NCBI GenBank assembly: GCA_045567915.1
Contig: JBJLCA010000039.1
Span: 1,879 to 65,878 of the forward strand
Reading direction: 5' to 3'
Origin: Candidatus Poseidoniales archaeon
Lineage (GTDB): Archaea > Thermoplasmatota > Poseidoniia > MGIII > CG-Epi1
Length of the DNA: 64,000 bases
Each line of letters opens with the position of its first letter. Position 1 is the stretch's first letter. Shown one piece after another: positions 6,501 through 62,192 of this stretch. The translations under genes and the position numbers were made by a program. The notes beneath the pieces were generated by a model. The model saw nothing but the letters and a program-made list of their open reading frames with translations. It was not told the origin of the DNA and searched no databases.

Positions 6501-7626
6501 TGAAGGTTTCATTCAATTTAGAGTATTCGCAGGTAATACCCTTTATTCAACACCTCTAGAAAATGATACGAGAGCAGCACTTGATGTCTGGTATCATGTT
6601 GCAGCAACTTATAGTGAAACTGGTAATTCATTAAGACTTTATGTTAATGGTACATTGGCTACAAATGCCACGATATCATCCTCGGATTCAATAAAAACAG
6701 CAGGAAGTAAAAATTACATTTGTAGAGGCCAAAGTGGAGCTTATCTTAACGGAACGGTAGATCATATTGCTATATGGGAAAGGGCATTTACAGAAGACGA
6801 AATAAGGTATTTTTATGAAAGACCATTAGCAATAGATAATTATTTCAATTTAAGGGTAGATGATGGAATAAGATACACGAATGCTAATTCTACAGATACT
6901 GATGAAGATGGTTTATCAGATGGGGAAGAATTCTATTTCGGTTTAGATGGATATTTAACAGATCCTACTAATAATGACACCGATGGAGATGGGTTGAACG
7001 ATTATCAGGAATGGTACTTCTTTGGAACGGACCCTACAACAAATGACACAGACTCCGATAATTTCACGGATGACATTGATATTTTCCCGCTAGATTCAAC
7101 AGAATGGATTGATACTGATGGAGATGGAGTTGGAGATAATTCAGATTATTTCCCACTTGATTTTAATGAAAGCAAAGACTCAGATTTAGATGGGTTGGGA
7201 GACAAACTTGAAATATTGATGCAAACTAATCCGTTTTCAAATGATACAGACGGAGATGGCAGTATTGATTCAATAGATAAATTTCCTTTAAATGACACTG
7301 AGTACTTAGATTCGGACAACGATGGTTTTGGAGACAATATTGATAAGTGTCCTGAAAATCCTAATGGTTATTTAGATTCAGACGATGATGGTTATTGTGA
7401 TAATGTGGATGCATTTCCATTAAATCCAAATGAATATTTGGATTCTGATAGTGATGGTTACGGCGACAATTCAGACAAGTATCCTAACGATTCTTCAAAG
7501 TCTAGTGATCCTCTTCAGAAAGTCGATAAGAATGATCCATTAAGTGGGGGAACCTTAGATTTGGCTTTACCTTATATTGTACTAATAGGTACACTTTATT
7601 TTATTTTCAAATTTTTCAGAAAATAA
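3511..7626 (+). CDS. secreted subtilisin/kexin-like S8 serine protease with P-domain, thrombospondin type-3 Ca-binding repeats, LamG/ConA-like domain and C-terminal TM anchor
   Basis: Signal-like N-terminus (MKSLFVLLLFVTSIVA). S8 catalytic triad contexts are VVDDGID (Asp), DWHGTAVAGIV (His) and GTSASTPMVAGVIAL (Ser). P-domain pattern HSWRGDLNLFLESPNGIVSELV...WTFSSVVHWDENSFGLWKLKA. Many DxDxDGxxDxxE repeats. LamG-like WYHVAATYSETGNSLRLYVNG. C-terminal hydrophobic LALPYIVLIGTLYFIF then KFFRK. Confidence 0.8.
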   Translation: MEHFYQNMKSLFVLLLFVTSIVANHVDIEAKHSGETEIKIEYIDCGPSSFSDSVKSSFLKKINSNYLDSELYKLTDWIVLINDNHCHHDLDFLFNLSNLEAYHSIRIIDGGWSISFQSGDIAYSVLDNWRNTGKVWGFYPEISIRNELRYEPNDPYYVSGDQWYLNNYGQNGGNSGIDISPQSAWENYDGAGIRIGVVDDGIDYDNPDLSANFASSLSYDYCDDDGDVMPSDSDNDGEIDWHGTAVAGIVSAKGNNSIGISGVSYNSDLVGIRLVADSCNSSFTLDESEAYALNHRLDVVDIYANSWGPPDDGNLLGEIGPLALSALEEGVSEGRDGLGSIYVWAAGNGHQNGDNSNKDAYANSRYTVAVGAINWKGERTEYSESGSNLMLVAPSHNNSEWVDPAIFSTDISGSDGHTNTSYLDDMGGTSASTPMVAGVIALMLEANPDLTWRDVQHILVRTSKMVDSSNEGWFKTYEGRDYNHAYGYGLVDASSAVNLARNWENVTGEMNLTEVTANTGKIMVNEIISDANELGVTSEFFVKESIDIETIEIKVNISHSWRGDLNLFLESPNGIVSELVRESNDGNDNYRDWTFSSVVHWDENSFGLWKLKANDTVFGGDTGVWVDWNMTIYGHPAADRDFDGLTDFAESKLGTKLSDPDDDNDGLLDGEEYYGWLDLQGNFHLTDLKDQDSDDDGVTDWYEGREDNLTRSLTDPNDNDTDDDGILDGCEIYGLDDCDNYVTDPLEVDTDGDGISDYDEIFANLLEPSRLRSDPTKIDSDNDGMPDPYELDNGFGPKVTADGFQDSDCDGVQVQFQGLDCILLNENSIRYTNYQEYLMGTNPNDPDTDLDGLPDGWEYFSGLNPLVDDSHLDFDNDTISNIYEFNNYLVESDIFSKMSSGLRAYWQFESSFPTDAIGSGPSSHFASMVNGATKIPAKLANGVYCDGSSSHLTIDSIKNTKFTEYTVQTWVKLTNYTNFGTIVGTATDGRTWLGIDSEGFIQFRVFAGNTLYSTPLENDTRAALDVWYHVAATYSETGNSLRLYVNGTLATNATISSSDSIKTAGSKNYICRGQSGAYLNGTVDHIAIWERAFTEDEIRYFYERPLAIDNYFNLRVDDGIRYTNANSTDTDEDGLSDGEEFYFGLDGYLTDPTNNDTDGDGLNDYQEWYFFGTDPTTNDTDSDNFTDDIDIFPLDSTEWIDTDGDGVGDNSDYFPLDFNESKDSDLDGLGDKLEILMQTNPFSNDTDGDGSIDSIDKFPLNDTEYLDSDNDGFGDNIDKCPENPNGYLDSDDDGYCDNVDAFPLNPNEYLDSDSDGYGDNSDKYPNDSSKSSDPLQKVDKNDPLSGGTLDLALPYIVLIGTLYFIFKFFRK

Positions 7627-22362: not shown

Positions 22363-25230
22363 ATGCTCGAGCGTTATGCGCGACTTCCAATCGACAGTCC
22401 AAGACAGATTATCTTAGTCGTAGCATTGATAACTTTAATAATTTCACCTTTTGTTCTTAAAGTGGAGTTTTCAACAGATGTTCAAGCCTTCTTACCCCAG
22501 TCACAAGAAGTTGAGACTTACGATGCAATAACTGAGGATTTTGGTAAGGATTCTAGTGTAGTCAATTTGTATTTGACTTCAATCAGCAGCAGTAATGTTC
22601 TTACAATGGATAATCTTGTTGACATTTTGCAGCTCCATAATGATTGTTTACAAATAGACGGAGTCGAGGGTGTTTTGTCCGTGGCAGATTTTTTCGATTC
22701 AGCTTTATTGGACTCTGGTTTGTCTTTATCGGCAGTTGAGTCTGCAGAGGAACCTTGGGAGCTTGTTTATGATTCAATATCGACGTCAGGTAGCGGTAAT
22801 TATTCTTGGAATGAAGTAGATTTTGTTGGTGATGTGTTAATCAATAGAGATTTGAATTTAGATCCTTTAATAATTGTGGAATCTGAGGGTTCAGTTCGTG
22901 GAGCACCTATAGCTAATTCGACGATTATCATGGTGAATTTAGATCCGGATTTATCCACAGAGCAGAAAAAGGAAGCTGGCCAAAAACTGAGAACACTTGC
23001 AGACAGTCACAATCAAGACTCTGGGAGCGATATTAGTGCAGAAGCATTTTCAGTAGATCTTTTAGCTTCAGATGTAGACGAATCTACACAATATACCAAT
23101 GTTTTGATGATTGTTGGTATGCTCTTAGTTACTGTAGTACTACTGTGGTTGACTTTCAGGCACTGGAGTTATGTAGTTTTACCAATTATCACGTTAATAT
23201 TGTCCATCTTTTGGACATTTTCTTTCGCAGGGATTGTTGGAATTAAGATGACTGCATTAGGCGTTGCAGTTATTCCACTAGTAGTTGGATTGGGCATTGA
23301 CTTTTCAGTTCATGTGAGTCGAAGATATCAAGAGGGTATTGCAGCAGGCAGTAGTTTGGAAGATTCACTTATTGAGTCCCAAGTGCATACAGGTCAAGCC
23401 TTGTCACTGGCAATGTTTACTACAGTTATTGCATTTCTATCAGGAATCACAGGCGGTGTTGGGCCAGTTAGAGATTTTAGTTTACTTTGTGCTTTTGGAA
23501 TATTTTCGTCATTTATTTTAACATTATTTTTCTATACTTCTATGAGGTATTTGTTAGACTCCTCTTCAGAGGGGATGGCTGTTAAACCTCAGAACTCTGA
23601 AATAATAGAGTCTTCAATACTCAAAGCCTCTCAAATAGTTGATAAACATCCACAAGCTATTATTTCAACAGTAATTGTTCTTACAATTTTAGCACTCGGT
23701 GGAGCTTCCCAGATTGAGACTTCCTTTTCGTTGGATGATTTTCTTTCGGATGATTTAGAAATAATGGTTACAGCTGAAAAAATACAATCAGATTTCAGAG
23801 GTGCTAGTTATTCACAGTCACAAATTTTGATTCAGGGAGATATTGATTCAACTGATTTTATTGATGGCAATTATGAGTTCCAATATGGTCAATCTAGTTC
23901 CGATAATAAAGGACTTAACGATGACCGCTATGTTATCAAAGTAGGAGCAAATGCACGTGTAGAGTCAGTGCATCAGATAGTTCAAAAGGCGATTGATTCA
24001 GAGGAATATAGTGTAAATCATGGAGAAAATTTAACACATGAATGGACAATAACAAACCCATTTTTGGTTACTTCAGGAGATGACTTGGATGTTCACTGGA
24101 CGATGGAACAATCTGTAGTTTCTCCATCCTTAGAAGCCATAATATTATGGTATGATTCTTCGAACGAGCTTCTAGGTACTGAAGAATTAACTAATATTGA
24201 TATTTCAACTGATTTATCATCCTCTTCAAGCGCAACAATTCAAATATTTGAAAATTCGTATAAAGCTCGACTCAAGTTTTCATATGTTCAAGATGCGTCA
24301 GAGGATTCTTTAATTCAGTCAATAGAAGTTCATAATAGAGAAAGATACGTATTTGTTCAATCATTAACAGATACCTTTAATTTAACTTATCAGGCAAAAA
24401 CGTTTAGTTTGACAACAGACTCAGATATTCACAATTTGTATGATTATATTTATCAAAGGGAATTGGACATTGCAGACCCTTTCACAGGAGAGTCATATGC
24501 TGATGAAATTGAACATGTTCTAAATGTAGATTCTGAAGGAAACTATGTCTCTTCTGTTGTTAGAATATACATTGGACCTACTACGTCTTATGAATTAGAT
24601 AATGATGGTTTAGAGTTTATGCGTGACCAATTAGATGAAGATATTCCAGATATATTTATTGAAAATTTCACAGTCAGTACTACTGGTGGTCATGTTTTAA
24701 CCAGCGTAACCGTTAATGAGATTCAAAAGACTCAGATTAGCTCTACGTTAATAGCTATTGTTTTTGCAGCAATAACTTTGATTCTTATCTACAGAAGTGT
24801 AGATCTTGGAATAATTGCAGTTTTCCCAACTATTCTAGCTTCAATATGGATACTAGCAACAATGACTTTACTTGGAATAACTCTTAATGTTCTAACTGTT
24901 ATGGTAACTGCACTTACAATTGGTTTGGGAATAGATTATGCGATTCATATTGTTGAAAGATATCGTGAGGAAAGAGAACATAAGACCGAGAGCCAGGCAA
25001 TTGAAACTACAATCGTAAGAACAGGTTCAGCATTATTAATTTCAGGTTTAACTACTGTTTCAGGCTTCGCAGTATTATTCTTGTCTCCTATGCCCTTAGT
25101 TCGTAATTTTGGAATAATTACTGCAGCTACAATAATCTATTCGATGTTTATTGCTATTTTTGTTTTACCTAGCTTAATTTGGATATCTAATAGAATTAAG
25201 GAATGGATATCTAGTCAAACTTTAGATTAG
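22363..25230 (+). CDS. MMPL/RND-superfamily membrane exporter (two sterol-sensing-like 6-TM bundles with large extracytoplasmic loops)
   Basis: Two hydrophobic clusters (~aa 240-400 and ~770-940), each preceded by a single TM and a large soluble loop. Motif GLGIDYAIH. Architecture matches MMPL-type RND transporters. Confidence 0.7.
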   Translation: MLERYARLPIDSPRQIILVVALITLIISPFVLKVEFSTDVQAFLPQSQEVETYDAITEDFGKDSSVVNLYLTSISSSNVLTMDNLVDILQLHNDCLQIDGVEGVLSVADFFDSALLDSGLSLSAVESAEEPWELVYDSISTSGSGNYSWNEVDFVGDVLINRDLNLDPLIIVESEGSVRGAPIANSTIIMVNLDPDLSTEQKKEAGQKLRTLADSHNQDSGSDISAEAFSVDLLASDVDESTQYTNVLMIVGMLLVTVVLLWLTFRHWSYVVLPIITLILSIFWTFSFAGIVGIKMTALGVAVIPLVVGLGIDFSVHVSRRYQEGIAAGSSLEDSLIESQVHTGQALSLAMFTTVIAFLSGITGGVGPVRDFSLLCAFGIFSSFILTLFFYTSMRYLLDSSSEGMAVKPQNSEIIESSILKASQIVDKHPQAIISTVIVLTILALGGASQIETSFSLDDFLSDDLEIMVTAEKIQSDFRGASYSQSQILIQGDIDSTDFIDGNYEFQYGQSSSDNKGLNDDRYVIKVGANARVESVHQIVQKAIDSEEYSVNHGENLTHEWTITNPFLVTSGDDLDVHWTMEQSVVSPSLEAIILWYDSSNELLGTEELTNIDISTDLSSSSSATIQIFENSYKARLKFSYVQDASEDSLIQSIEVHNRERYVFVQSLTDTFNLTYQAKTFSLTTDSDIHNLYDYIYQRELDIADPFTGESYADEIEHVLNVDSEGNYVSSVVRIYIGPTTSYELDNDGLEFMRDQLDEDIPDIFIENFTVSTTGGHVLTSVTVNEIQKTQISSTLIAIVFAAITLILIYRSVDLGIIAVFPTILASIWILATMTLLGITLNVLTVMVTALTIGLGIDYAIHIVERYREEREHKTESQAIETTIVRTGSALLISGLTTVSGFAVLFLSPMPLVRNFGIITAATIIYSMFIAIFVLPSLIWISNRIKEWISSQTLD

Positions 25231-32670: not shown

Positions 32671-32715
32671 AAGTAAATAAATTTAAATTTATATACTGAT
32701 GAATAAGTCGCAGTT

Positions 32716-33759
32716 ATGATTAATCTACCCCAGTTTGTGACAGATAGAAAGAGACTATTCCTTTCAATATCGGTTGTACTAGTTTTACTTCTACCTGCCA
32801 TTTGGTTTGGATTAGGTCACGTTATCGCTAAGCAAGCTTTGACAGTACCTCACGGTTGTGGTCTTTGGGAATCCAATACTCCAACAAATTGGACAGTGGA
32901 TGATGATTGGGAGTCTTTTGAGCCTTGGGCAGATTCGGAACAACGAATATCAATGCGGAAGGATTTCAACGCAACTTCTTGGCAGTTTGATTCGTATGAA
33001 ACAATAAACTTTACAAGCAGAGATGGAATTAATCTTGAAGGTTGGTATGTTGAGGTAAATTCCTCATCACCAGTAGTTATTTTTGTTCATGGTGGCTATG
33101 AAAACGGCAAATGTAAGCCAGAGATTTTACTCTCAGCTTCATACTTGTCAAAGAATAATATCAATGTTTTCATGATTGATCTTCGAAATCATGGCCACAG
33201 TGAAGTAGTTTCAGACTATTTTTATCTAGGTCAGAAAGAATATTTGGATGTTCTAGGAGCTTACGATTGGTTAGTTGAAGATAAATCCTACAATCCTCAG
33301 TCAATCGGAATTGTTAGTATTTCGACTTACGCTTTAGCATCAACACTTGCTTTCGATGAATCAGAGATAGGAGCAATGTGGTTAGATAGTCCAATAATAG
33401 ATTTCCCTCTTTTGGTTGGGAATGAACTAGAAAGGCTTGGTTTCCCTAGGATGCTTGCATCACCTGCAATAACTATGGGTGAAAGGTTAGTTGGAGTGAA
33501 TATAGATGATAAGGTTCCTTTAGAAGTAGCCTCAAGGGCTGGAGATAGGCCAATGTACCTAGTCCATGGTGATAGCGATGTAAGAATATCCAACGAGCAT
33601 TCCAAGAAATTTTATAATAAAGCTGTAGAAGCTGAAGCTAATGTTACTTTATGGTTGGTTGAAGACAGCGCTCATGTAGATGCACTCTGGCAATATTCTT
33701 CCGATTATGAATCTCGTATTGTTACTTTCTTTACAGATTCTCTTATAATTGAATCTTAG
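32716..33759 (+). CDS. membrane-anchored alpha/beta-hydrolase fold protein
   Basis: N-terminal TM (LFLSISVVLVLLLPAIWFGL). PVVIFVHGGYENG, then a loop-helix and C-terminal HGDSD...AHVD, consistent with the alpha/beta hydrolase (DLH/peptidase S9-like) topology. The nucleophile motif is not canonical. Confidence 0.5.
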   Translation: MINLPQFVTDRKRLFLSISVVLVLLLPAIWFGLGHVIAKQALTVPHGCGLWESNTPTNWTVDDDWESFEPWADSEQRISMRKDFNATSWQFDSYETINFTSRDGINLEGWYVEVNSSSPVVIFVHGGYENGKCKPEILLSASYLSKNNINVFMIDLRNHGHSEVVSDYFYLGQKEYLDVLGAYDWLVEDKSYNPQSIGIVSISTYALASTLAFDESEIGAMWLDSPIIDFPLLVGNELERLGFPRMLASPAITMGERLVGVNIDDKVPLEVASRAGDRPMYLVHGDSDVRISNEHSKKFYNKAVEAEANVTLWLVEDSAHVDALWQYSSDYESRIVTFFTDSLIIES

Positions 33760-35451: not shown

Positions 35452-35637
35452 ATGGCAAGAATAGATGTCAAAGACAAGGACCCCTTTGCTCATGCAGATG
35501 ATGAGCCAAAAGATAACATATCTACAGGCGGATTTATTTTTAGAGCGTTATTTAGATATTTGAGAATTTTTATATTCTTCTATGGAATTACAGCAATTGT
35601 CTATTATTTTGTGTTTGGAACCCTACCTGGTTTTTGA
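35452..35637 (+). CDS. small hypothetical membrane protein
   Basis: 61-aa ORF with one strongly hydrophobic C-terminal segment. No other support. Confidence 0.25.
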   Translation: MARIDVKDKDPFAHADDEPKDNISTGGFIFRALFRYLRIFIFFYGITAIVYYFVFGTLPGF

Positions 35638-35643
35638 ATAGGA

Positions 35644-36420
35644 TTAACTTTCGTATTTCTCAGCTGAATCGTATAGACTATCAAAGATTAATCTAGCAAG
35701 TCGAGCCAATTCAGGTTGGTTCATCCACATACCTAGAAGTGTGTTTTCAGATTCAGGAACATCTAATCCACCTACACAAAATTCACTATTATCTATTAGT
35801 ATAATTCCTGCAGCAGGTATTGATCTTGCTAATTTAACTTCAAAATACCCTTCTAAGCGGCTTAAATCTAAGTTATTTTCTTTATCTGGAAATAACATTC
35901 TGACTTTTATTCCTCGACCACTTGCGTCGGAAAAAGCTCTACAAACATTTCGTGGCATTTCAGAAGGAAGTATGGCTGCGATAACATCAATGGTTTCATT
36001 CGCCCTCTCGCACATGTCAACTACTTGTGAAAATATATCCATGTCTTTTACAGTTAGTGTTTCTAAGTAATCTACGGGTTTTGATTTGAATAACGGAGCC
36101 AGTTCTTCATCTACTAATTTAGATGCATTTTGTATTGACTTTAATTTTCTATCAGATATTTCTTTAGGGTCGACTGGGAAATAGGTTTTAGGGTGCTTAT
36201 TACCTTCAACTACAATTCCTTCGGCCAGAAGATTATCAATAATTCCATAAATCTTTGCTCTTGAAAAGTTTATAGATCTACTTATTTTACCAACAGTAGA
36301 TTCTTTTGATACAAGAAGTACGTGGTAAACATGAGCTTCATCCTTTGATAATCCTAATTGAGTTAATATTTTAATTTCTTTTTCAGATTTTACTTTGTCG
36401 CTTTGACTTAGGCCTCGCAT
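35644..36420 (-). CDS. TrmB-family transcriptional regulator
   Basis: N-terminal winged HTH (EAHVYHVLLVSKESTVGKISRSINFSRAKIYGIIDNLLAEG) and a C-terminal TrmB-like effector domain. Divergent from the beta-oxidation operon. Confidence 0.7.
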   Translation of the reverse strand: MRGLSQSDKVKSEKEIKILTQLGLSKDEAHVYHVLLVSKESTVGKISRSINFSRAKIYGIIDNLLAEGIVVEGNKHPKTYFPVDPKEISDRKLKSIQNASKLVDEELAPLFKSKPVDYLETLTVKDMDIFSQVVDMCERANETIDVIAAILPSEMPRNVCRAFSDASGRGIKVRMLFPDKENNLDLSRLEGYFEVKLARSIPAAGIILIDNSEFCVGGLDVPESENTLLGMWMNQPELARLARLIFDSLYDSAEKYES

Positions 36421-36539
36421 ACGGTTACATAATTATGTACCTATTTAAAATGTCAGTTTAGTCACAAAGTATATAAATGTTTTATTAATTTAATCTGTTT
36501 CCTTAGTTTTATATACTAAATGTATATTGTAAAATTAAG

Positions 36540-37661
36540 ATGAGTAGTGACGTAGCAATTTGTGGCTTTGTTCGTTCGCCTTTTACTCCGGCTAAAAGGG
36601 GAGGTTTATCGAAAGTTAGACCTGATGATTTGGCAGCAGGCGTAGTTAATGGTTTGATTGAAAAGTATTCGGTAAATGTGGATGATATTGAAGATTTGAT
36701 ATTAGGTTGCGCTTTTCCAGAGGCGGAACAAGGAATGAATTTAGCTAGAAATGTAGTATTTTTATCTCAATTACCTAACAGTGTTGGTGGAGTTACAGTG
36801 AATAGGTTTTGTGCATCCTCAATGCAAGCCATTCATCAGGCAGCTGGAGCTATAAATTCAGGTTCGGGAGAGCTGTTCATAGCTGGTGGTGTTGAGTCAA
36901 TGAGCCGTGTTCCAATGCCAGGTTTCAATCCAATGCTCAATCCAAGTTTAATTGATGTTGACGCTTACATTGGGATGGGACATACAGCAGAAAATTTGGC
37001 TAAGAAACATTCTATTTCTCGTGAGGATCAAGAGGCAATGGCTCTTGAGAGTCATCAAAAAGCAACAGAAGCACAAGAGAAAGGTAAATTTAAGGAAGAA
37101 ATTATTCCAATTAAGGGAGTCAACGATGACGGCTGTGTTCGACCTGAAACCTCACTCGAGTCCATGGCTAAGTTGAAACCAGCTTTTGACAAGGAAGGAG
37201 TTGTTACGGCTGGAACCTCATCACCTTTGACAGACGGTGCAGCTGCAGTTATTGTATGCTCAAAGGAATATGCTGAAAAGAATAATTTGAATATTATGGC
37301 CTATATTAGAGGAATGGCAATCTCAGGTTGCGATCCAGAAGTTATGGGTATCGGACCAGTTAAGTCTTCACAAAAAGCTCTTGAAAGGGCAGGAATCAGC
37401 TTAGAAGACGTTGATGTTATTGAAATGAATGAAGCTTTTGCAGCTCAGAGTTTAGCATGTGTTAAAGAATTAGGTATTGATATGTCGAAATTGAACATGC
37501 ACGGCGGTGCAATTTCCATGGGTCATCCTTTGGGAGCTAGTGGTGCTAGAATTACAGGAAAAGCAGCCTCTCTTTTGAAAGAGACTGGCAAAAAGTATGC
37601 TCTTTCAACAATGTGCGTTGGCGGTGGGCAAGGTTGTGCAACAGTTCTAGAAAGGGCTTAA
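36540..37661 (+). CDS. acetyl-CoA C-acyltransferase (3-ketoacyl-CoA thiolase)
   Basis: Thiolase active-site contexts NRFCASSMQAI (Cys), GHPLGASGARI (His) and CVGGGQG (Cys). Confidence 0.85.
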   Translation: MSSDVAICGFVRSPFTPAKRGGLSKVRPDDLAAGVVNGLIEKYSVNVDDIEDLILGCAFPEAEQGMNLARNVVFLSQLPNSVGGVTVNRFCASSMQAIHQAAGAINSGSGELFIAGGVESMSRVPMPGFNPMLNPSLIDVDAYIGMGHTAENLAKKHSISREDQEAMALESHQKATEAQEKGKFKEEIIPIKGVNDDGCVRPETSLESMAKLKPAFDKEGVVTAGTSSPLTDGAAAVIVCSKEYAEKNNLNIMAYIRGMAISGCDPEVMGIGPVKSSQKALERAGISLEDVDVIEMNEAFAAQSLACVKELGIDMSKLNMHGGAISMGHPLGASGARITGKAASLLKETGKKYALSTMCVGGGQGCATVLERA

Positions 37662-40019
37662 ATGGAAATTAGTAAAGTTGCAGTGATTGGTGCTGGCTTA
37701 ATGGGTAGTGGTATTGCCGCACACATAGCAAATTCAGGTCTTCCAGTAACTTTATTGGATATCGTTCCAAAGGAAGCTACTAATCGTAATATCGTAGCTG
37801 AAACTGCAGTTAAGAGTATGTTGAAGCCAGTTAAAACAGGAAGTCCGACGCCTCTAATGCACAAGGATAATGTTAAATTAATAAAAACAGGTAATCTTGA
37901 AGATGATATTAATCTGATAAATGATGCAGATTTGATAATTGAAGTAGTCCTAGAAAGGCTTGACATAAAGCACGATGTGTTCAAAAAGATTGATAAACAC
38001 AGAAAGCCGGGTTCGATTGTAACTTCGAATACATCTACAATCCCAAGGGAAAAACTCGTAAGCGGAATGCCAGATTCATTCGCACAAGATTTTATGATTA
38101 CTCATTTTTTTAATCCACCAAGATATTTACGATTGCTAGAGATTGTAGCCGGCAAAGAAGTTAGTAAAAAGAAGATTGAAAAAATCGTTAAGTTTTGCGA
38201 TTTGAATCTTGGAAAAGAGGTTGTTATCTGTAATGATACTCCAGGATTTATAGGTAATCGAATAGGAACTTACTGGACACTTGTCGGAATGATTGAGGCC
38301 TTTAAGCTTGGTTTGACAGTCGAAGAAGCTGATGCTGTGATGGGCCGCCCTATCGGAGCTCCTAAAACAGGTATATTTGGTTTAGTTGACGTAGTAGGCT
38401 TAGATCTTATTCCTCATGTAACTGAGAGTATGTCTTCAAATCTTTCAATTGAGGATTTGTATAACGATGGAGTAAAAGAACAGGAAGCCTTAGGAATTGA
38501 TAAATTATTGCAGGAAATGATTGCTAGTGGATATACTGGAAGAAAAGGCAAAGGTGGATTCTACAGACTAAATACAGAAGGTGGTAAGAAAATTAAAGAA
38601 TCTCGTAATTTAGTATCTGGGAACTACAGCCCTTCCAATAGGCGAGTAGGGTTAGAGAGTGTAAAAGCAGCCAAAAAAGGCCTAAAAACCCTTGTTGAAT
38701 ATAATGATAAAGGCGGAAATTATGCATGGAAAGTACTGTCAAAGACTCTTTCATACGCAGCTTCACTTGTACCTGAAATAACTGATAATTTGGTAAATGT
38801 AGATTTAGCAATGAAAAATGGATTTCTATGGAAAAAAGGCCCGTTTGAAATGTTAGATGATTTAGGCCCTTCTTGGTTTGCCAGCAAAATTGAGGCTGAA
38901 GGTATGCAGGTTCCAGATTTGTTAAAGGTAGTTTCAGATGGTAAATTTTATGACGTAATTAGTGGCGAATTAAATTATCTTGGTGTGGGTGGAAAATACT
39001 CTAAAATACAAAAACCAAAAGGATATTTGAATACTAAAGATGTTAAGCTAGGTAAAGAACCTATTTTCAGAAATCCTTCAGCTAGTCTGTGGGACATGGA
39101 TGATGAAATACTTTTAGCTGAATTCCATAGTAAGATGAATTCTATGGATCCCTTAATCATGGAGGCTTTGTCTAAAGCTTCAGATTTATGTGAATCAGGA
39201 AATTTCAAAGGCCTTGTGGTAGGTAATGATGGTACTAATTTTTCAGCAGGGGCGAATTTAGGTTTATCAAGTTTTGTAACAAATGTAGGGGCTTGGGAAG
39301 AAGCTGAAAATTTTGTTCAAGGCGGTCAACTAGCTTTTATGATGTTGAAACACGGGAGTTTTCCAGTAGTGGGAGCTTCACATGGTTTAGCCATCGGAGG
39401 CGGCTGTGAGGTTTTACTCGCATGTGATGCAATACAAGCCCATGCAGAAAGTTACATTGGATTGGTGGAAGTAGGTGTAGGTCTTGTTCCAGCTTGGGGT
39501 GGATGTAAAGAGATGATTACTCGTTGGAATCAAGATCCAGATCAACCAAAGGGGCCAATGGCATCAATAATGAATATTTTCCAGAATGTTGGAACTGCAA
39601 AAGTAGCAACAAGTGCTCAAGAAGCTAAAGAAATGAAATTTTTAAGCCCAAAAGACCAAATAACTATGAATCGCGAACGTTTACTCCACGATGCAAAGGA
39701 ATTATGTATGAAAATGACAGATAACTATGAAGCTCCATCTCCAAAGGAACATTTTTTGCCTGGACCTTCAGGAAAAGCAGCTTTAGATTTAGCTGTGGAT
39801 GATTTGGTAAAAGCAGGCCATGCTACACCCCATGACGTTGTAGTAACTAAAGAATTGTCTCACATATTATCTGGAGGTGACACAGATCCAACTGAAACAG
39901 TGTCTGATGATAAACTACTTGAGATGGAAAGAGAGGGCATTCTTAGACTTATGAGAACCGAAGGGACAATGGATAGAGTTGAACATATGTTGACAACAGG
40001 GAGACCGTTGAGGAATTAA
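37662..40019 (+). CDS. bifunctional 3-hydroxyacyl-CoA dehydrogenase / enoyl-CoA hydratase (FadN-type order: HCDH N-terminal, crotonase C-terminal)
   Basis: N-terminal Rossmann VIGAGLMGSGIAAHIA (3HCDH). C-terminal crotonase fold with GLAIGGGCEVLLACD. 785 aa. Confidence 0.85.
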   Translation: MEISKVAVIGAGLMGSGIAAHIANSGLPVTLLDIVPKEATNRNIVAETAVKSMLKPVKTGSPTPLMHKDNVKLIKTGNLEDDINLINDADLIIEVVLERLDIKHDVFKKIDKHRKPGSIVTSNTSTIPREKLVSGMPDSFAQDFMITHFFNPPRYLRLLEIVAGKEVSKKKIEKIVKFCDLNLGKEVVICNDTPGFIGNRIGTYWTLVGMIEAFKLGLTVEEADAVMGRPIGAPKTGIFGLVDVVGLDLIPHVTESMSSNLSIEDLYNDGVKEQEALGIDKLLQEMIASGYTGRKGKGGFYRLNTEGGKKIKESRNLVSGNYSPSNRRVGLESVKAAKKGLKTLVEYNDKGGNYAWKVLSKTLSYAASLVPEITDNLVNVDLAMKNGFLWKKGPFEMLDDLGPSWFASKIEAEGMQVPDLLKVVSDGKFYDVISGELNYLGVGGKYSKIQKPKGYLNTKDVKLGKEPIFRNPSASLWDMDDEILLAEFHSKMNSMDPLIMEALSKASDLCESGNFKGLVVGNDGTNFSAGANLGLSSFVTNVGAWEEAENFVQGGQLAFMMLKHGSFPVVGASHGLAIGGGCEVLLACDAIQAHAESYIGLVEVGVGLVPAWGGCKEMITRWNQDPDQPKGPMASIMNIFQNVGTAKVATSAQEAKEMKFLSPKDQITMNRERLLHDAKELCMKMTDNYEAPSPKEHFLPGPSGKAALDLAVDDLVKAGHATPHDVVVTKELSHILSGGDTDPTETVSDDKLLEMEREGILRLMRTEGTMDRVEHMLTTGRPLRN

Positions 40020-40020
40020 T

Positions 40021-41832
40021 ATGGTAAAATACAAAGCACCTCTTAGAGAATATGAATTCATATTGCGTGAAGTATTAGATATTGAGAAAGAGTTAGGATC
40101 TTATCCTGAATATAGCGAAGCTACGTGGGACATGATTGAGATGGTTAGTGAGCAATTTGCAAAGATAAATGAGGATTACTGGCTTCCTTCAGCAAAAGAG
40201 GGGGATGAAGTAGGTGTCAAGTTTGACAATGGCAATGTGATTGTGCCAGATTCAATGAAAGAGGCCACAAAAATTGTTATTGAAGGAGGACTAACACAGC
40301 TGTTTGGACATCAGGAATATGGTGGAATGGAGTTTCCAAATGTAATTAGCGTATTGTCCGATGAAATGTCATGCGCAGCTAACATGTCACTTGGTATATA
40401 TTTGGGATTAACTAAAGGAGCATATCACTGTATTCATAAGCACGGAAGCGAAGAGATTAGGCAAAGATATCTTCCTAAGTTTTTATCTGGTGAATGGTTT
40501 GGAACAATGTGTCTGACTGAAGCCCATTGTGGTACCGATTTGGGATTAATTCGAACAACAGCTACACCAGATGGAGATAGATATTCAGTAAGTGGTCAAA
40601 AAATTTTCATATCTTGCGGCGAGCATGATATGGCTGAGAACATAATACATTTGGTTCTTGCGAGACTGCCAGACGCTCCCAAAGGAGTTAAAGGAATTAG
40701 CCTTTTCTTAATTCCTAAATATAAAGTAAATGAAGATGGAACGTTAGGTGATCATAACAACGTGAATTGTGTGTCTATTGAAGAAAAAATGGGAGTTCAC
40801 GGCTCTGCAACTTGTGTAATGAGTTTTGAAGGTTCTGAGGGCTATTTAATTGGAGAACTTAATGAAGGTCTTGCAGCGATGTTTTCAATGATGAATACTG
40901 AAAGAATAGCAGTTGGTTTACAGGGTTTAGGGCAGGCTGAGATTGCATATCAAAATGCATTAGCATATGCAAAGGATAGAATCCAAGGGAGAGACCTTAA
41001 AGGGCCTAAAAATCCAGACGACGAAGCTGATCCGTTAATAGTTCATCCAGATATTAGGCGTATGTTAATGCGTTCTAAGGCGCTAATTGACTCAGGTAGG
41101 ATGCTAGCCAGTTGGACTGCATTGTCAATTGATAAATCTGAAAAAGATCCTGATGCTAAAGTTCGTAAAGAGCATAATGATTTAGTTGAATTGATGACTC
41201 CGATAATCAAGGCTCTGCTGACAGATTACGGTGTTGAAATTACTTCAGAAATGATGCAAGTTTTCGGTGGTCATGGATATATCAAAGAATATGGGATGGA
41301 ACAATTTTACCGTGATGTTCGAATTGCACCAATATGGGAAGGGACCAATGGTATTCAGGCTCTTGACTTAGCAGGAAGAAAGATGCCCCAACACATGGGT
41401 CGATTACTTAGGAGGTTTTTCCATCCAGCATTAGAATTTATAGATGATAACAAGGACGATGACAATATGAAAGAATTTGTTGAACCTTTTGGAAAGGCAC
41501 TAAAAGGTTTGCAAAAGACTACCTTGTATATGGCCCAGAAAGGTCTATCGAATCCATATGAGATTGGAGCTGCAGCAACGGATTATTTGAGGCAATTTGG
41601 TTTAGTGGCAATGGGTTACATGTGGCTATTGATGTTAAAAGTTGCTTATGCGAAAAAAGATACTGATTCATATTATGAGCATAAAATAATAACAGCTCGT
41701 TTTTTCTTCGAGAGAATATTGCCAGAGACATTATCTAGAGCAATAGCTATTGGTTCAGGATCAAAAACTATGATGTCATTACCTGATGAAGGATTTGATA
41801 GTGTTCACAAATTTACCGGAGCTGCTAATTAA
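40021..41832 (+). CDS. acyl-CoA dehydrogenase (long FadE-like form with extra C-terminal domain)
   Basis: ACAD motifs MCLTEAHCGTDLG and GGHGYIKEYGMEQFYRD. 603 aa. Confidence 0.85.
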   Translation: MVKYKAPLREYEFILREVLDIEKELGSYPEYSEATWDMIEMVSEQFAKINEDYWLPSAKEGDEVGVKFDNGNVIVPDSMKEATKIVIEGGLTQLFGHQEYGGMEFPNVISVLSDEMSCAANMSLGIYLGLTKGAYHCIHKHGSEEIRQRYLPKFLSGEWFGTMCLTEAHCGTDLGLIRTTATPDGDRYSVSGQKIFISCGEHDMAENIIHLVLARLPDAPKGVKGISLFLIPKYKVNEDGTLGDHNNVNCVSIEEKMGVHGSATCVMSFEGSEGYLIGELNEGLAAMFSMMNTERIAVGLQGLGQAEIAYQNALAYAKDRIQGRDLKGPKNPDDEADPLIVHPDIRRMLMRSKALIDSGRMLASWTALSIDKSEKDPDAKVRKEHNDLVELMTPIIKALLTDYGVEITSEMMQVFGGHGYIKEYGMEQFYRDVRIAPIWEGTNGIQALDLAGRKMPQHMGRLLRRFFHPALEFIDDNKDDDNMKEFVEPFGKALKGLQKTTLYMAQKGLSNPYEIGAAATDYLRQFGLVAMGYMWLLMLKVAYAKKDTDSYYEHKIITARFFFERILPETLSRAIAIGSGSKTMMSLPDEGFDSVHKFTGAAN

Positions 41833-42657
41833 ATGGCTAACGAGAGTATTTTCAAACAAGATATCTTTGAAGGCAAAAAAGTATTCATAACAGGCGGTGC
41901 AACAGGCATGGGATTAGGATTTGCTAAATCTTTTTTAGAACATGGTGCTGAAGTAATTATTGCTTCCAGAAAAGAAGATAACTTACGTTTAGCTTCAGAA
42001 GAAGCTGAAAAGGAGACCGGTAAGAAGTTAATATGGAAAGTTATGGATGTTCGTGATAATGGTAGTGTAGAGAAAGTAGCTGATTACATCAAATCTGAAT
42101 GGGGTAATTTAGATATTTTAGTAAATAATGCCGCAGGTAATTTTCTTTCTCCAGTATCTAACATGAGTGAAAATGCTTGGAGAGCTGTAGTAGATATCGT
42201 GCTGGATGGTACTTTTAGAGTATCTAAGGCTTGCTACCCACTTCTTAGAAAAGCGCCATCAGCATCTGTGGTTAATATAATAGCAAATTATGCTTGGAAT
42301 GCAGCCCCCTATGTAGGTCATTCAGGAGCTGCAAAAGCAGGAGTTTTGAATCTGACAAGAACTTTGGCATTGGAATGGGCTAGTGACAATATTCGCGTCA
42401 ATGCTTTTTGTCCCGGAGTAGTTCTTACAGAGAATGTTAAGAGTAATTTAATGCTTGATGAAGATACTGCTAAACTGTTTGAAAATTATATTCCGTTGGG
42501 TGGAGTAACCGATTCAAATAAGATGGCTCAGCAAGTTCTATATCTTTGTTCTTCAGCTGCAGATGTTATAACTGGAGATATGTTGATTGCAGATGGAGGG
42601 CAGTGGTTAGTAGGAAATGCTTTTTATCATGCAGGGAAACAATTTCTAGATGGGTGA
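41833..42657 (+). CDS. SDR-family oxidoreductase (2,4-dienoyl-CoA reductase-like)
   Basis: TGGATGMGLG cofactor motif and YVGHSGAAK (YxxxK). Sits in the beta-oxidation operon. The DECR assignment is inferred from context and similarity of motifs. Confidence 0.65.
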   Translation: MANESIFKQDIFEGKKVFITGGATGMGLGFAKSFLEHGAEVIIASRKEDNLRLASEEAEKETGKKLIWKVMDVRDNGSVEKVADYIKSEWGNLDILVNNAAGNFLSPVSNMSENAWRAVVDIVLDGTFRVSKACYPLLRKAPSASVVNIIANYAWNAAPYVGHSGAAKAGVLNLTRTLALEWASDNIRVNAFCPGVVLTENVKSNLMLDEDTAKLFENYIPLGGVTDSNKMAQQVLYLCSSAADVITGDMLIADGGQWLVGNAFYHAGKQFLDG

Positions 42658-43087
42658 TTCCAAATCGATTATCACAAAAATCCCAGTTTTGTGGGGAGAT
42701 ATGGATGGGTTTGGACATGTTAATAACATAATATATCTAAAATGGTGTGAAACTTCAAGGATAGAACTATTTCGAAGTATATGGAATTATAAAATAGGAA
42801 ATATGGAAGAGGTGTTGGAAAGAGGAGGCGTAGGTCCGATATTAGCTAATTTTAATATGGACTATAAGTATCCTGTCAAATATCCTGACGAAATAAGAAT
42901 TGAAACTTATTTGACACACATTGGTAATTCATCAATGGGCATTGGCCATGAACTTTTTAGCCAGAATACTGATAAATTAGTTGCTAAGGCAAATAGCGTA
43001 ATTGTTATGCTAAATTATGTTTCAAATGATAAAGTTATCATTAGCGATAAAGATCGGGAAATTTTGTCTCAGTATCTAAGAACATAG
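42650..43087 (+). CDS. hotdog-fold acyl-CoA thioesterase (YbgC/4HBT-like)
   Basis: VLWGDMDGFGHVNNIIYLKWCE is typical of 4HBT-family thioesterases. 145 aa. Confidence 0.7.
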   Translation: MGDSKSIITKIPVLWGDMDGFGHVNNIIYLKWCETSRIELFRSIWNYKIGNMEEVLERGGVGPILANFNMDYKYPVKYPDEIRIETYLTHIGNSSMGIGHELFSQNTDKLVAKANSVIVMLNYVSNDKVIISDKDREILSQYLRT

Positions 43088-43101: not shown

Positions 43102-43179
43102 TGGTGGGCCCGATCGGATTTGAACCGATGGCCTCCCGGTTATCAGCCGGGTGCTCCAACCAGGCTAAGCTACGGGCCC
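43102..43179 (-). tRNA. tRNA-Ile (anticodon GAT)
   Basis: Reverse complement GGGCCCGTAGCTTAGCCTGGTTGGAGCACCCGGCTGATAACCGGGAGGCCATCGGTTCAAATCCGATCGGGCCCACCA is a perfect cloverleaf. Anticodon loop CTGATAA. CCA encoded. Confidence 0.85.
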
Positions 43180-43309: not shown

Positions 43310-43633
43310 ATGTCCAGAGAAGCCTTATTGGAGAAGATTAAGAAAGCTGAAGCTGCAGCTGCTAGTGATATCGAAGCTGCTGAGAAGGAACAAGTTTCTG
43401 CAAGAAATAAAGTACCTATAGATCAAGATAATTTGATGAAGAAAGCCAAGGATTCAGCTGTATCAAAATCTCAAAAAGAGATTGATGCCGCAAAAGCTGA
43501 GGTTGAATCTCAAAAGAGTGCAATTCTCAAAAAAGGTAAAAAAAGTAATTCGGATATGAAAAAGAAGGCTGATGGTAAAGTAGATGCAGCAGCAGATAAG
43601 TTTATCGAAGAGTTTTTGGAGAGTCTATCTTAA
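43310..43633 (+). CDS. atpH: A-type ATP synthase subunit H
   Basis: 107-aa charged helical protein (K/A/E-rich) at the head of the atpHIKECFABD operon. Confidence 0.7.
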   Translation: MSREALLEKIKKAEAAAASDIEAAEKEQVSARNKVPIDQDNLMKKAKDSAVSKSQKEIDAAKAEVESQKSAILKKGKKSNSDMKKKADGKVDAAADKFIEEFLESLS

Positions 43634-61265: not shown

Positions 61266-62192
61266 CTATTCCTTTATTATGTTATCTACTGCAGTAAACG
61301 GATCTATTTTTCGGTTTAAAACATCGTTTGATGTTTTTGCTATTTCATCATCCCCAATTTCGATAATCTTCTTAGTAAATAATTTTTGACTAATTTGATT
61401 TTCTAGTTCATACTTTAATTTTTCTAGTCTTTTTGCTAAAAATTTCTCTTTACCTAAATATTCTTGATGTTTTTCTATATTTTGCCACAATTCATCTATT
61501 CCCTCGCCTGATGTTGCAGTAGTTGGCACAATTGGTGCTTTCCATCCTTTCTGCTCGCCAAGTGACAGCATCATTTGTAATTCTCTTGCTAGTCTATCAG
61601 AGCCAGGTCTATCACTTTTGTTGACCACAAGAACATCTCCAATTTCTAATATTCCTGCCTTTTGAGCTTGTACTTCATCACCCAATCCAGGTACTTCTAC
61701 AACAATAGTAGTATCAGAGATTTTTACAATTTCAACATCTCCTTGTCCGGCTCCGACAGTTTCAACGAGAGTAAAATCATTTCCAAGGAGTTCAACAGCG
61801 TTAATCAACAACCTTGTAGTTGCAGCTAGGCCACCTAAATGCCCTCGACTTGCAACAGATCGAATAAAAATCCCAGACGTCTGGGCACCTGACATTCTAA
61901 GCCTATCGCCCAATACTGCGCCGCCTGAAAACGGGCTAGTTGGGTCTACAGCTAAAATCCCTACACTTTTCCCTTTTTTTGCCAAAAATTTAGCTAAAGA
62001 ATCAACAATTGTTGATTTTCCGGCACCAGGTGGACCTGTTATTCCTATAATGTAAGATTTACCTGTATTTATCCAAATTTTTTTGAGGATATATTCAGCT
62101 ATTGGATCTTCATTCTCAATTAATGTTATCAATCTAGCAACTGCACGGGTATCTGCTTTCTTTAATTTTTCTAAAAGTCGCTTTTTATTCAA
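61266..62192 (-). CDS. meaB: methylmalonyl-CoA mutase-associated GTPase MeaB (ArgK family)
   Basis: P-loop [18 protein letters not shown]-motifs include [11 protein letters not shown] start overlaps the stop of the upstream B12-subunit gene. Confidence 0.8.

Follow-up and report, generated by a model that had tools for sequence, protein, structure and literature searches.

Conserved linkage of a short TrmB-family regulator to a beta-oxidation operon in Marine Group III archaea, and a candidate control region between them

Does a regulator of the TrmB family, labelled 'sugar-specific' in Pfam, control fatty-acid degradation in an archaeon? The question is raised by a 64,000-nt stretch of contig JBJLCA010000039.1 (hereafter the window, meaning this whole stretch) from a Marine Group III (MGIII) archaeon, in which the gene of a TrmB-family protein (35644..36420, minus strand) diverges from a five-gene fatty-acid beta-oxidation operon (36540-43087, plus strand). 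The gene content, gene order, tight coupling and divergent TrmB-family gene described in the initial annotation were all recovered, as six open reading frames (ORFs). Marine Group II (MGII) and MGIII archaea are abundant uncultured heterotrophs whose use of lipids affects ocean carbon turnover, and almost nothing is known of metabolic regulation in either group. Coordinates given here come from the ORF map, and family assignments from Pfam and NCBIfam profiles. The conservation of the regulator, the operon and the DNA between them makes it quite probable that the regulator is specifically linked to the control of the operon.

Linkage was assessed in 25 loci from GTDB species representatives and 80 metagenome loci, 97 of which extend 500 nt or more upstream of the regulator gene. 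A divergently oriented thiolase gene lies within 400 nt of the regulator in 94 of the 97 informative loci, and in 23 of the 25 GTDB loci. The possibility, allowed for in the initial annotation, that relatives keep the regulator next to unrelated genes is thereby contradicted: it stands beside the operon. Two of the three remaining loci (L006 and L010) have a thioesterase gene in place of the thiolase gene, and the third (L009) is an assembly oddity. The regulator–operon pair stays intact while the neighbouring 1-pyrroline-5-carboxylate dehydrogenase (P5CDH) gene inverts (L020-L024), the ATPase operon switches sides and a hydrolase gene moves. It is also kept in a distant GC-rich clade, whose regulators are 46-47% identical to that of the window, where P5CDH is not adjacent and the neighbours are the TATA-binding protein (TBP) and aIF5A genes. 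The persistence of the linkage through rearrangements and in this clade argues for a regulatory link, as do the rigid geometry of the TATA boxes, the uniqueness of the promoter blocks to the locus and the conserved recognition helix of the regulator. The two loci with a displaced thiolase are deletion derivatives that have kept the promoter. The first lacks the four core genes from thiolase to the short-chain dehydrogenase/reductase (SDR), and its thioesterase gene directly follows the promoter. The second carries a deletion scar (L010:1034-1243), in which a 42-codon remnant of the thiolase N-terminus (…LSKIRPDD…) stands behind an intact promoter pair and is followed by the thioesterase gene; some MGIII lineages have therefore lost beta-oxidation and kept the regulator.

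The intergenic spacer is 119 bp long (36421-36539) and AT-rich, as first described, with 80% A+T. In alignment-free anchoring, the cross-species signal consists of two conserved blocks, each centred on a TATA box. Block A-ext (36468..36486, minus strand; AGTATATAAATGTTTTATT) combines a BRE-like (transcription factor B recognition element) RAAACA, the TATA box TTTATATA and a following CT, and belongs to the promoter of the regulator gene. Block B-ext (36503..36519, plus strand; TTAGTTTTATATACTAA) contains the TATA box of the operon promoter (TTTATATA, 36508-36515) between conserved flanks TTAsT and AsTAA, without a purine-rich BRE. In the window the two TATA boxes form a perfect 10-nt inverted repeat. 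A-ext is conserved in all MGIII loci, is identical (TATATAAATGTTTTAT) in the 46-47% clade, and is the best-conserved element of the spacer. The block TATATAAATGTTTYAT, conserved in the two clades alike, occurs nowhere else in about 1 Mb of related DNA. A scan of 1.05 Mb of related DNA and of the 64-kb window found A-ext and B-ext in one copy each per locus and one each in the window, with no extra copies elsewhere in the 1.05 Mb, including the promoters of ribosomal-protein, RNA polymerase and ATP-synthase genes. The blocks are therefore not the generic promoter consensus of the organism.

The relative position of the two boxes is as constrained as their sequence. The start-to-start offset of the inverted TATA boxes is 38 nt in 86 of 86 scored MGIII loci, and the 30-nt spacer between them (36478..36507) has an invariant length across MGIII and a variable central sequence. 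All eight loci of the GC-rich clade have an offset of 27 nt, 11 nt less, or about one helical turn, and a 35-nt AT-rich island (TATATAAATGTTTTATTTTATTAAACTATTATATA) is invariant in this clade within DNA of 63-64% GC while its flanks vary. The start of box B and the thiolase start codon are 26-33 nt apart, and in the window the operon TATA box precedes the thiolase ATG by 32 nt. Between the regulator start codon and block A there are 21 nt in the GC-rich clade and the majority of MGIII loci, and 49 nt in the clade of the window. Judged by archaeal promoter geometry, these distances fit leaderless or near-leaderless transcripts on both sides. The greater distance in the window clade is due to a 28-nt insertion confined to it (window 36442-36469), which provides a second TATA-like box in tandem upstream of the regulator (36442..36449, minus strand; TATTTAAA on the plus strand), 21 nt from the regulator start codon. 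The insertion looks like a tandem copy of block A, that is, of the regulator core promoter; one locus (L058) still has TATATAAATGTT twice. The distal copy of block A, which stands in the 38-nt relation to box B, is better conserved than the proximal one.

A separate rearrangement is seen in L006 (L006:2806-2899), where the 30 nt between the TATA boxes correspond to the reverse complement of the standard sequence (25 of 30 positions, against 10 of 30 in the forward direction), the 38-nt offset is kept and the BRE-like GAAACA now flanks the operon-side TATA box. This locus looks as though the inverted TATA repeats had been the ends of an inversion, accompanied by a deletion.

Operator candidates were sought within the same blocks. 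The initial annotation had seen no obvious palindrome in the spacer. Two can in fact be found by eye, TACATAATTATGTA (36426-36439) and ATATAC-N5-GTATAT (36511-36527), but both are specific to the window and within chance expectation. Considered as operators of the TrmB or Thermococcales glycolytic motif (TGM) type, they were rejected, because not even the closest relatives have them and such repeats arise by chance in shuffled spacers, 5% of which contain a 14-bp palindrome and 49% a 6+6 inverted repeat. In an unbiased scan for dyad symmetry in 72 unique MGIII cores, with a column-shuffle null, the best axis in A-ext (TATATAAATGTTTYATA) is a 17-bp quasi-dyad that scores 0.69, against a 95th percentile of 0.64 for the null. 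B-ext reads TA[C/G]T-N7-A[G/C]TA. Known sites of TrmB-family proteins include TACT-N3-AGTA over the BRE and TATA box of malE, through which TrmB of Pyrococcus furiosus (Pfu) represses, and others of the form TACT-N7-8-GAGTA (PMC4158304). By sequence, A-ext is the leading operator candidate and B-ext the second, and the evidence for an operator in the spacer is moderate overall.

The protein itself weakens the surprise attached to its family name. The regulator has 258 residues, and its sole Pfam or NCBIfam domain is the TrmB winged helix-turn-helix (wHTH; PF01978, 54.4 bits against a cut-off of 25.6), matched at residues 19-86 over the full profile (1-68). It falls far below the NCBIfam equivalog cut-offs for TrmB (32 bits against 600) and TrmBL1 (24 bits against 650). 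The AlphaFold2 model (pLDDT 89.5) consists of the wHTH (~19-86), a 29-residue helix (85-113) and an alpha/beta domain resembling phospholipase D (PLD-like, ~121-252), and contains no sugar-binding beta-barrel, the chain stopping at residue 258. Foldseek places TrmBL2 structures first (5bqt and 5bpd with E 4e-15, besides 5box and 5bpi; full length, ~265 aligned columns), followed by TrmB (3qph, E 7.5e-12), the effector-binding domain (EBD) of TrmB (2f5t, E 2.5e-7) and then PLD-fold proteins for the C-terminal half. Profile search of the PDB matched residues 18-114 only, to Pfu TrmB (3qph); TrmBL2 was absent among these sequence-level matches, and the C-terminal half had none. Precomputed matches to PF11495, the model of the PLD-like N-terminal subdomain of the EBD, exist for four orthologs (P0034, P0042, P0048 and P0054). 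The model thus indicates the short TrmBL2/TrmBL3-type architecture, which lacks the sugar-binding subdomain.

The premise of the initial annotation that a TrmB protein implies sugar is accordingly weak for a protein of this short type without the beta-barrel. That subdomain holds six of the seven sugar-binding residues of TrmB (PMC4158304), and its absence argues against sugar-responsive DNA binding. Proteins with PF01978 and non-sugar roles are known, among them the chromatin protein TrmBL2 (PMC4158304) and OxsR. The Pfam description 'sugar-specific' carries no functional information for this regulator, and the label 'sugar-specific regulator TrmB' should not be passed on to short TrmBL2-like members of the family.

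The orthogroup of the regulator is compact, with a uniform length of ~258 aa, 63-95% identity and a single 50%-identity cluster among 1.84 billion representatives; the next relatives beyond it have the same length and at most 37% identity. The recognition-helix segment FSRA[KR]IYGI[IL]DNL is conserved in both clades. DNA contacts of Pfu TrmB are made by Y50 and D51 of the recognition helix (PMC4158304 Table 1); in the MGIII protein the alignment pairs Y50 with Y58, which does not vary within the orthogroup, and D51 with Gly59. Since the recognition helix is common to both clades, the operator should be as well, which A-ext fits and B-ext fits in part.

The nearest paralogs have a different setting. 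None of four paralogs (P0076-P0079, 31-37% identity) adjoins beta-oxidation genes, and two of the four flank MMPL transporters. The nearest paralog groups (34-37% identity, 248 aa) lie beside genes for MMPL/RND-type transporters (L026:6001-9439, L030:3551-6747), either co-directional and overlapping or divergent. The window has an MMPL gene of its own (22363-25230, 955 aa), with no TrmB-like gene beside it. The MMPL neighbours may be a hint that this TrmB subfamily has to do with lipids.

The five genes of the operon follow one another at distances of 0, +1, 0 and -8 nt. The first (36540..37661, plus strand, like all five) encodes an acetyl-CoA C-acyltransferase, or FadA-like 3-ketoacyl-CoA thiolase (TIGR01930, 443.9 bits against a cut-off of 240.55). 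The second (37662..40019) encodes a bifunctional protein of 785 aa, assigned to the FadN type by its Pfam domain order: an N-terminal L-3-hydroxyacyl-CoA dehydrogenase (3HCDH_N and 3HCDH, residues 5-302) precedes a C-terminal enoyl-CoA hydratase (crotonase, ECH_1, 491-615), the reverse of FadB. This protein matches NF052272 (Staph_FadB) over its full length with 513 bits, under the cut-off, and its PDB matches cover single domains only. The third gene (40021..41832) encodes a long FAD acyl-CoA dehydrogenase (ACAD) of 603 aa, of the FadE1/FadE2/DmdC type with the extra C-terminal helical domain PF12806. The fourth (41833..42657) encodes an SDR placed in the 2,4-dienoyl-CoA/trans-2-enoyl-CoA reductase subgroup by NCBIfam and PDB resemblance, and the fifth (42650..43087) overlaps it by 8 nt and encodes a hotdog-fold acyl-CoA thioesterase, YbgC/FadM-like, which exceeds the 4HBT_2 cut-off (76.6 bits against 25.5) and falls below that of TIGR00051 YbgC/FadM (52.9 against 68.7).

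The nearest NCBIfam models of the SDR are PRK07576 (240 bits, below its cut-off) and, as the best specific one, the 2,4-dienoyl-CoA reductase PRK07677 (233 bits against 318). Its PDB neighbours are 3imf, an SDR of Bacillus anthracis, 4fc6, the peroxisomal 2,4-dienoyl-CoA reductase (DECR2), 1yxm, the peroxisomal trans-2-enoyl-CoA reductase (PECR), and 1w6u, the mitochondrial DECR (DECR1). The likeness to eukaryotic peroxisomal enzymes remarked on at the outset is thus found in the SDR, which groups with peroxisomal and mitochondrial 2,4-dienoyl-CoA reductases. 'DECR-like' denotes a resemblance here and not membership, as the equivalog cut-off is not reached. The SDR is an optional component of the operon and is missing in two loci (L013 and L016).

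All four activities of beta-oxidation, namely acyl-CoA dehydrogenase, enoyl-CoA hydratase, L-3-hydroxyacyl-CoA dehydrogenase and 3-ketoacyl-CoA thiolase, are encoded in the operon by Pfam and NCBIfam assignment. No electron-transfer flavoprotein gene was present among the scanned ORFs of the window. FadH/DECR and FadM activities serve the degradation of unsaturated fatty acids. By its predicted products, the operon is one full beta-oxidation cycle with two accessory enzymes typical of unsaturated-fatty-acid breakdown. The gene content favours the catabolic direction, because a flavin ACAD belongs to the conserved core and the SDR is dispensable. The same direction is indicated by the 590-bit match of the ACAD to the fatty-acid-induced FadE1/FadE2 of Pseudomonas aeruginosa and by the abundance of MGIII beta-oxidation transcripts in situ (PMC4660358). 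FadE1 and FadE2 are catabolic long- and medium-chain acyl-CoA dehydrogenases, whose structures (8png/8r1e and 8pns/8pu5) come from one study (PMC11890623); the window ACAD scores 590 bits against the first pair, 555 bits against the second and 575 bits against 6ijc, which is DmdC, an enzyme of the dimethylsulfoniopropionate (DMSP) pathway (PMC6850173).

On the other side of the regulator the window contains an alpha/beta-hydrolase gene (32688-33759, 347 aa, with an N-terminal hydrophobic segment). The 10-mer TTTATATACT occurs 28 nt before its ATG and in three copies in the whole window. The hydrolase was considered as a third member of the regulon on account of this 10-mer, and was rejected, its promoter being conserved in the nearest relatives only. 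In an archaeal variant, L034, a homologue with 31% identity is itself part of the beta-oxidation operon. The hydrolase may be a lipase or esterase that feeds the pathway.

These observations can be assembled into a model, to which we assign as a whole a probability of roughly 0.6: a catabolic operon under a dedicated regulator that acts on two TATA blocks and is released by a lipid effector. The operon would be transcribed from a near-leaderless promoter with its TATA box at 36508-36515. The 258-aa protein, a TrmB-family member of TrmBL2-like architecture, would serve as its dedicated local regulator and bind A-ext (36468-36486) and B-ext (36503-36519) as a dimer or dimer of dimers. Binding within this 46-bp bidirectional control region would occlude TBP and transcription factor B (TFB) at both promoters and so repress both the operon and the regulator's own gene. 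A lipid effector, most plausibly acyl-CoA, would be sensed by the PLD-like C-terminal domain and release the regulator. For the sign of regulation taken by itself, we lean to repression at about even odds, taking Pfu TrmB at malE and FadR-type regulators, FadR_Sa among them (PMC6449355), as precedents; activation or dual function appears appreciably less probable. A fuller version is doubtful, in which a TrmB-family protein lacking the sugar-binding subdomain was recruited in planktonic Poseidoniia to sense lipids or acyl-CoA through its catalytically dead PLD-like domain and serves a horizontally acquired bacterial cassette, one oligomer gates both promoters through the phased inverted TATA boxes (38/27 bp), and the paralogs beside MMPL genes share the lipid sensing; this version would define a lipid-responsive TrmB subfamily.

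Several observations weigh against this model. The dyad symmetry is weak: the 0.69 of A-ext is close to the null maximum of 0.71, and the B-ext axis, at 0.61 in the 72 MGIII cores, is not significant. Compensatory change between TACT..AGTA and TAGT..ACTA was looked for in B-ext and rejected, as 15 of 23 loci are complementary at the C/G positions, which is about chance, and conservation of the right arm of B-ext does not extend to the distant clade. Both blocks overlap core promoter elements, so that binding of TBP and TFB alone could explain part of their conservation. The operon promoter without a BRE fits an activator-dependent promoter equally well as a repressed one. L034, a related archaeal lineage, has the operon without an adjacent TrmB-family gene, the regulator of L010 is intact (77% identity) after loss of the operon core and may have other targets, and TrmBL2, to which the regulator is structurally closest, is a chromatin protein that binds non-specifically.

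The closest competitor to repression at both promoters, which we rate nearly as good as a description of the sign though rather unlikely in its own right, has the regulator bind the A-ext quasi-dyad alone, repress its own gene and activate the operon. The phased upstream A-ext would recruit TBP and TFB to the BRE-less TATA box when fatty acids are present, a LysR-like logic resembling activation of the Tgr/TrmBL1/Hbt TrmB/MalR type. TrmB-family sites upstream of BRE and TATA do activate, and MalR is an activator (PMC4158304). No element but A-ext is shared unchanged by the two clades, and none scores higher as a dyad. The TATA box of the operon promoter matches the consensus and lacks the purine-rich BRE, in contrast to the regulator promoter with its RAAACA, and the strict distance between A and B (38 nt in MGIII and 27 nt in the distant clade) is what activator–promoter contacts would need. 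Of the two copies left by the promoter duplication in the window clade, moreover, conservation is stronger in the one 38 nt from B. Repression and dual function, however, explain the fixed and phased spacing alike. A tetramer bridging both boxes, or the sterics of back-to-back pre-initiation complexes, would account for the fixed spacing equally well. An A-only site also leaves unexplained nine conserved flanking positions of B-ext beyond the TATA box across MGIII. Bacterial FadR and PsrA are repressors of fatty-acid degradation, which likewise counts against activation of the operon, and the archaeal FadR_Sa acts as a repressor too (PMC6449355).

Two further explanations were weighed against the repression model. 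The regulator might be conserved in its place beside the operon and yet exert no specific control over it, acting as a chromatin or global regulator or on some other target, with the spacer representing two strong core promoters. The best structural match, TrmBL2, being a non-specific chromatin protein (PMC4158304), speaks for this, and so do the weak dyad statistics, the retention of the regulator after operon loss in L010 and L006, the operon of L034 without it, and the broad synteny of MGIII at the locus, where P5CDH is also adjacent in all MGIII loci. We consider it improbable, given that the 46-47% clade keeps the linkage although none of the other neighbours, P5CDH included, are shared, that the promoter blocks are unique to the locus in 1.05 Mb, that identity to TrmBL2 is only 18%, and that the nearest paralogs are locus-specific beside MMPL transporters, as is typical of local regulators. 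Less probable still is that the operon serves something other than straight-chain catabolism: synthesis in reverse, degradation of DMSP-derived 3-methylmercaptopropionyl-CoA, or use of branched or isoprenoid acids. The ACAD scores nearly alike against DmdC (6ijc, PMC6850173) and FadE1/FadE2 (PMC11890623), with 575 bits lying between 590 and 555, the SDR resembles the trans-2-enoyl-CoA reductase 1yxm and the citronellol-catabolism dehydrogenase 6lln, and the literature discusses reversible action of archaeal beta-oxidation enzymes (PMC6449355). Against this reading, the conserved core position is taken by a flavin ACAD instead of an enoyl reductase using NAD(P)H, and the SDR is dispensable. The DMSP demethylation route needs neither thiolase nor L-3-hydroxyacyl-CoA dehydrogenase, and no DmdA-like gene was found in the cluster. 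In the bacterial relative L036, finally, the same core directly follows FadL and FadD.

Comparison with characterised systems helps to place the proposed regulator. TrmB of Pfu and Thermococcus litoralis, regulator of the trehalose/maltose (TM) operon, shares with the MGIII protein the PF01978 wHTH, the long dimerisation helix and the N-subdomain of the PLD-like EBD, and each is encoded at a catabolic or uptake operon, control by the MGIII protein being a proposal. TrmB represses from a short TACT/AGTA dyad over BRE and TATA by blocking assembly of the pre-initiation complex (PMC4158304). The MGIII protein differs from it in length (258 against 338 aa), in lacking the C-terminal beta-barrel, in being encoded divergently from its operon rather than inside it, and in its association with beta-oxidation instead of sugar transport. 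TrmBL2 (TK0471/PF0496) has the same three-part architecture of ~260 aa without the sugar-binding subdomain. It binds coding and intergenic DNA non-specifically, whereas the MGIII protein is tied to one divergent operon with a locus-unique control region; this strict single-locus linkage argues against an orthologous function.

Nearest in proposed role is FadR_Sa (Saci_1107) of Sulfolobus acidocaldarius, an acyl-CoA-responsive TetR-family repressor of a lipid and fatty-acid cluster (PMC6449355). Like the MGIII protein it is a local archaeal regulator at beta-oxidation genes, and it is released by acyl-CoA, a behaviour only proposed for MGIII. It has a TetR fold, unlike the TrmB wHTH and PLD-like domain, and is experimentally characterised, whereas the role of the MGIII protein is predicted. 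Its orthologs have been reported in thermophiles including Thermoplasmatales, and not in MGIII (PMC6449355). A full-text literature search found no paper linking TrmB-family proteins to beta-oxidation or to MGII/MGIII, and retrieved the TetR-family FadR_Sa as the sole characterised archaeal fatty-acid regulator. Beta-oxidation genes in MGII and MGIII, with abundant transcripts in the deep sea, were described by Li et al. 2015 (PMC4660358), and the MGIII pathway, published and expressed, is therefore not new. The operon, the pathway and the regulator architecture were already known; the pairing of regulator with operon and the geometry of the control region appear to be unreported. If the model is correct, the regulator would represent a second, unrelated archaeal solution to fatty-acid regulation beside the TetR-type FadR_Sa. 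The compact conserved regulator–promoter pair is easily synthesised and offers a testable handle on substrate sensing in these archaea.

The initial annotation also held that the enzymes resemble those of bacteria, and this is supported. The same core of thiolase, FadN and ACAD is found on a Gram-negative contig with 63/56/51% identity to the window proteins, and the best solved relatives of the ACAD are FadE1 and FadE2 of P. aeruginosa. In that contig (L036:3557-12109, GCA_053986525.1) the order is FadL-FadD-thiolase-FadN-ACAD, and its bacterial markers are a FadL/Toluene_X outer-membrane channel, FadD, GGDEF and RelB/ParE. L035 and its relatives, the archaeal clade of 63-64% GC with TBP and aIF5A nearby, encode thiolase, FadN and ACAD of 61/58/62% identity. 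The bacterial proteins are thus about as near to those of the window as are the proteins of the distant archaeal clade, which, judged from identity levels and gene order alone, suggests inter-domain transfer of the three-gene core. A further archaeal variant, L034 (38% GC), has the order thiolase-FadN-ACAD-thioesterase-alpha/beta-hydrolase-SDR and adjoins pyruvate phosphate dikinase (PPDK). Its thiolase (L034:6865-8001) is split into ORFs of 299 and 78 aa, through a frameshift or a sequencing error. With bacterial fadA-fadN-fadE clusters (FadN-type in Bacillus and Staphylococcus; FadE1/FadE2 in P. aeruginosa) the MGIII operon shares the core gene and domain order. It differs from them in its archaeal host, its archaeal BRE/TATA promoter with near-leaderless geometry, the lack of FadL and FadD, the appended DECR-like SDR and thioesterase, and a regulator from an archaeal-type family.

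The archaeal identity of the host, asserted from the start, agrees with the relatives recovered: searched with the regulator, the GTDB species representatives yielded 25 loci, all 25 from metagenome-assembled or single-amplified genomes of Marine Group III/Poseidoniia, the closest by regulator being 'MGIII CG-Epi1' with 94-97% identity. The window is ordinary chromosome. It carries genes for ribosomal proteins, RNA polymerase subunits, the proteasome-activating ATPase, Cdc48, H+-PPase, lysyl-tRNA synthetase and CDP-archaeol synthase, and its GC content is flat at 0.35-0.40. A recent-island origin of the operon was rejected, its GC content (0.383) being close to that of the window (0.370) and housekeeping genes lying all around.

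The remaining observations concern other parts of the window. Genes related to heterotrophy include an AMP-forming acyl/acetyl-CoA ligase (AMP-binding; 1576-3501, plus strand), 33 kb from the operon, a 1371-aa secreted subtilase with lectin-like and thrombospondin type 3 (TSP3) repeats (3511-7626, plus strand) and a MeaB-type methylmalonyl-CoA mutase chaperone (61266-62192, minus strand), which belongs to the propionyl-CoA route for odd-chain products. A tRNA-Ile(GAT) gene (43102-43179, minus strand) lies 14 nt past the last stop codon of the operon and separates it from the A-type ATP synthase operon, which begins at 43310. Between the 3' end of the regulator gene and the P5CDH gene, and divergent from the latter, lies an unannotated ORF of 61 aa (35452-35637, plus strand) with a hydrophobic C-terminal half (MARIDVKDKDPFAHADDEPKDN…FIFFYGITAIVYYFVFGTLPGF). 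A start codon at the position of this ORF is also seen upstream of P5CDH in many MGIII loci.

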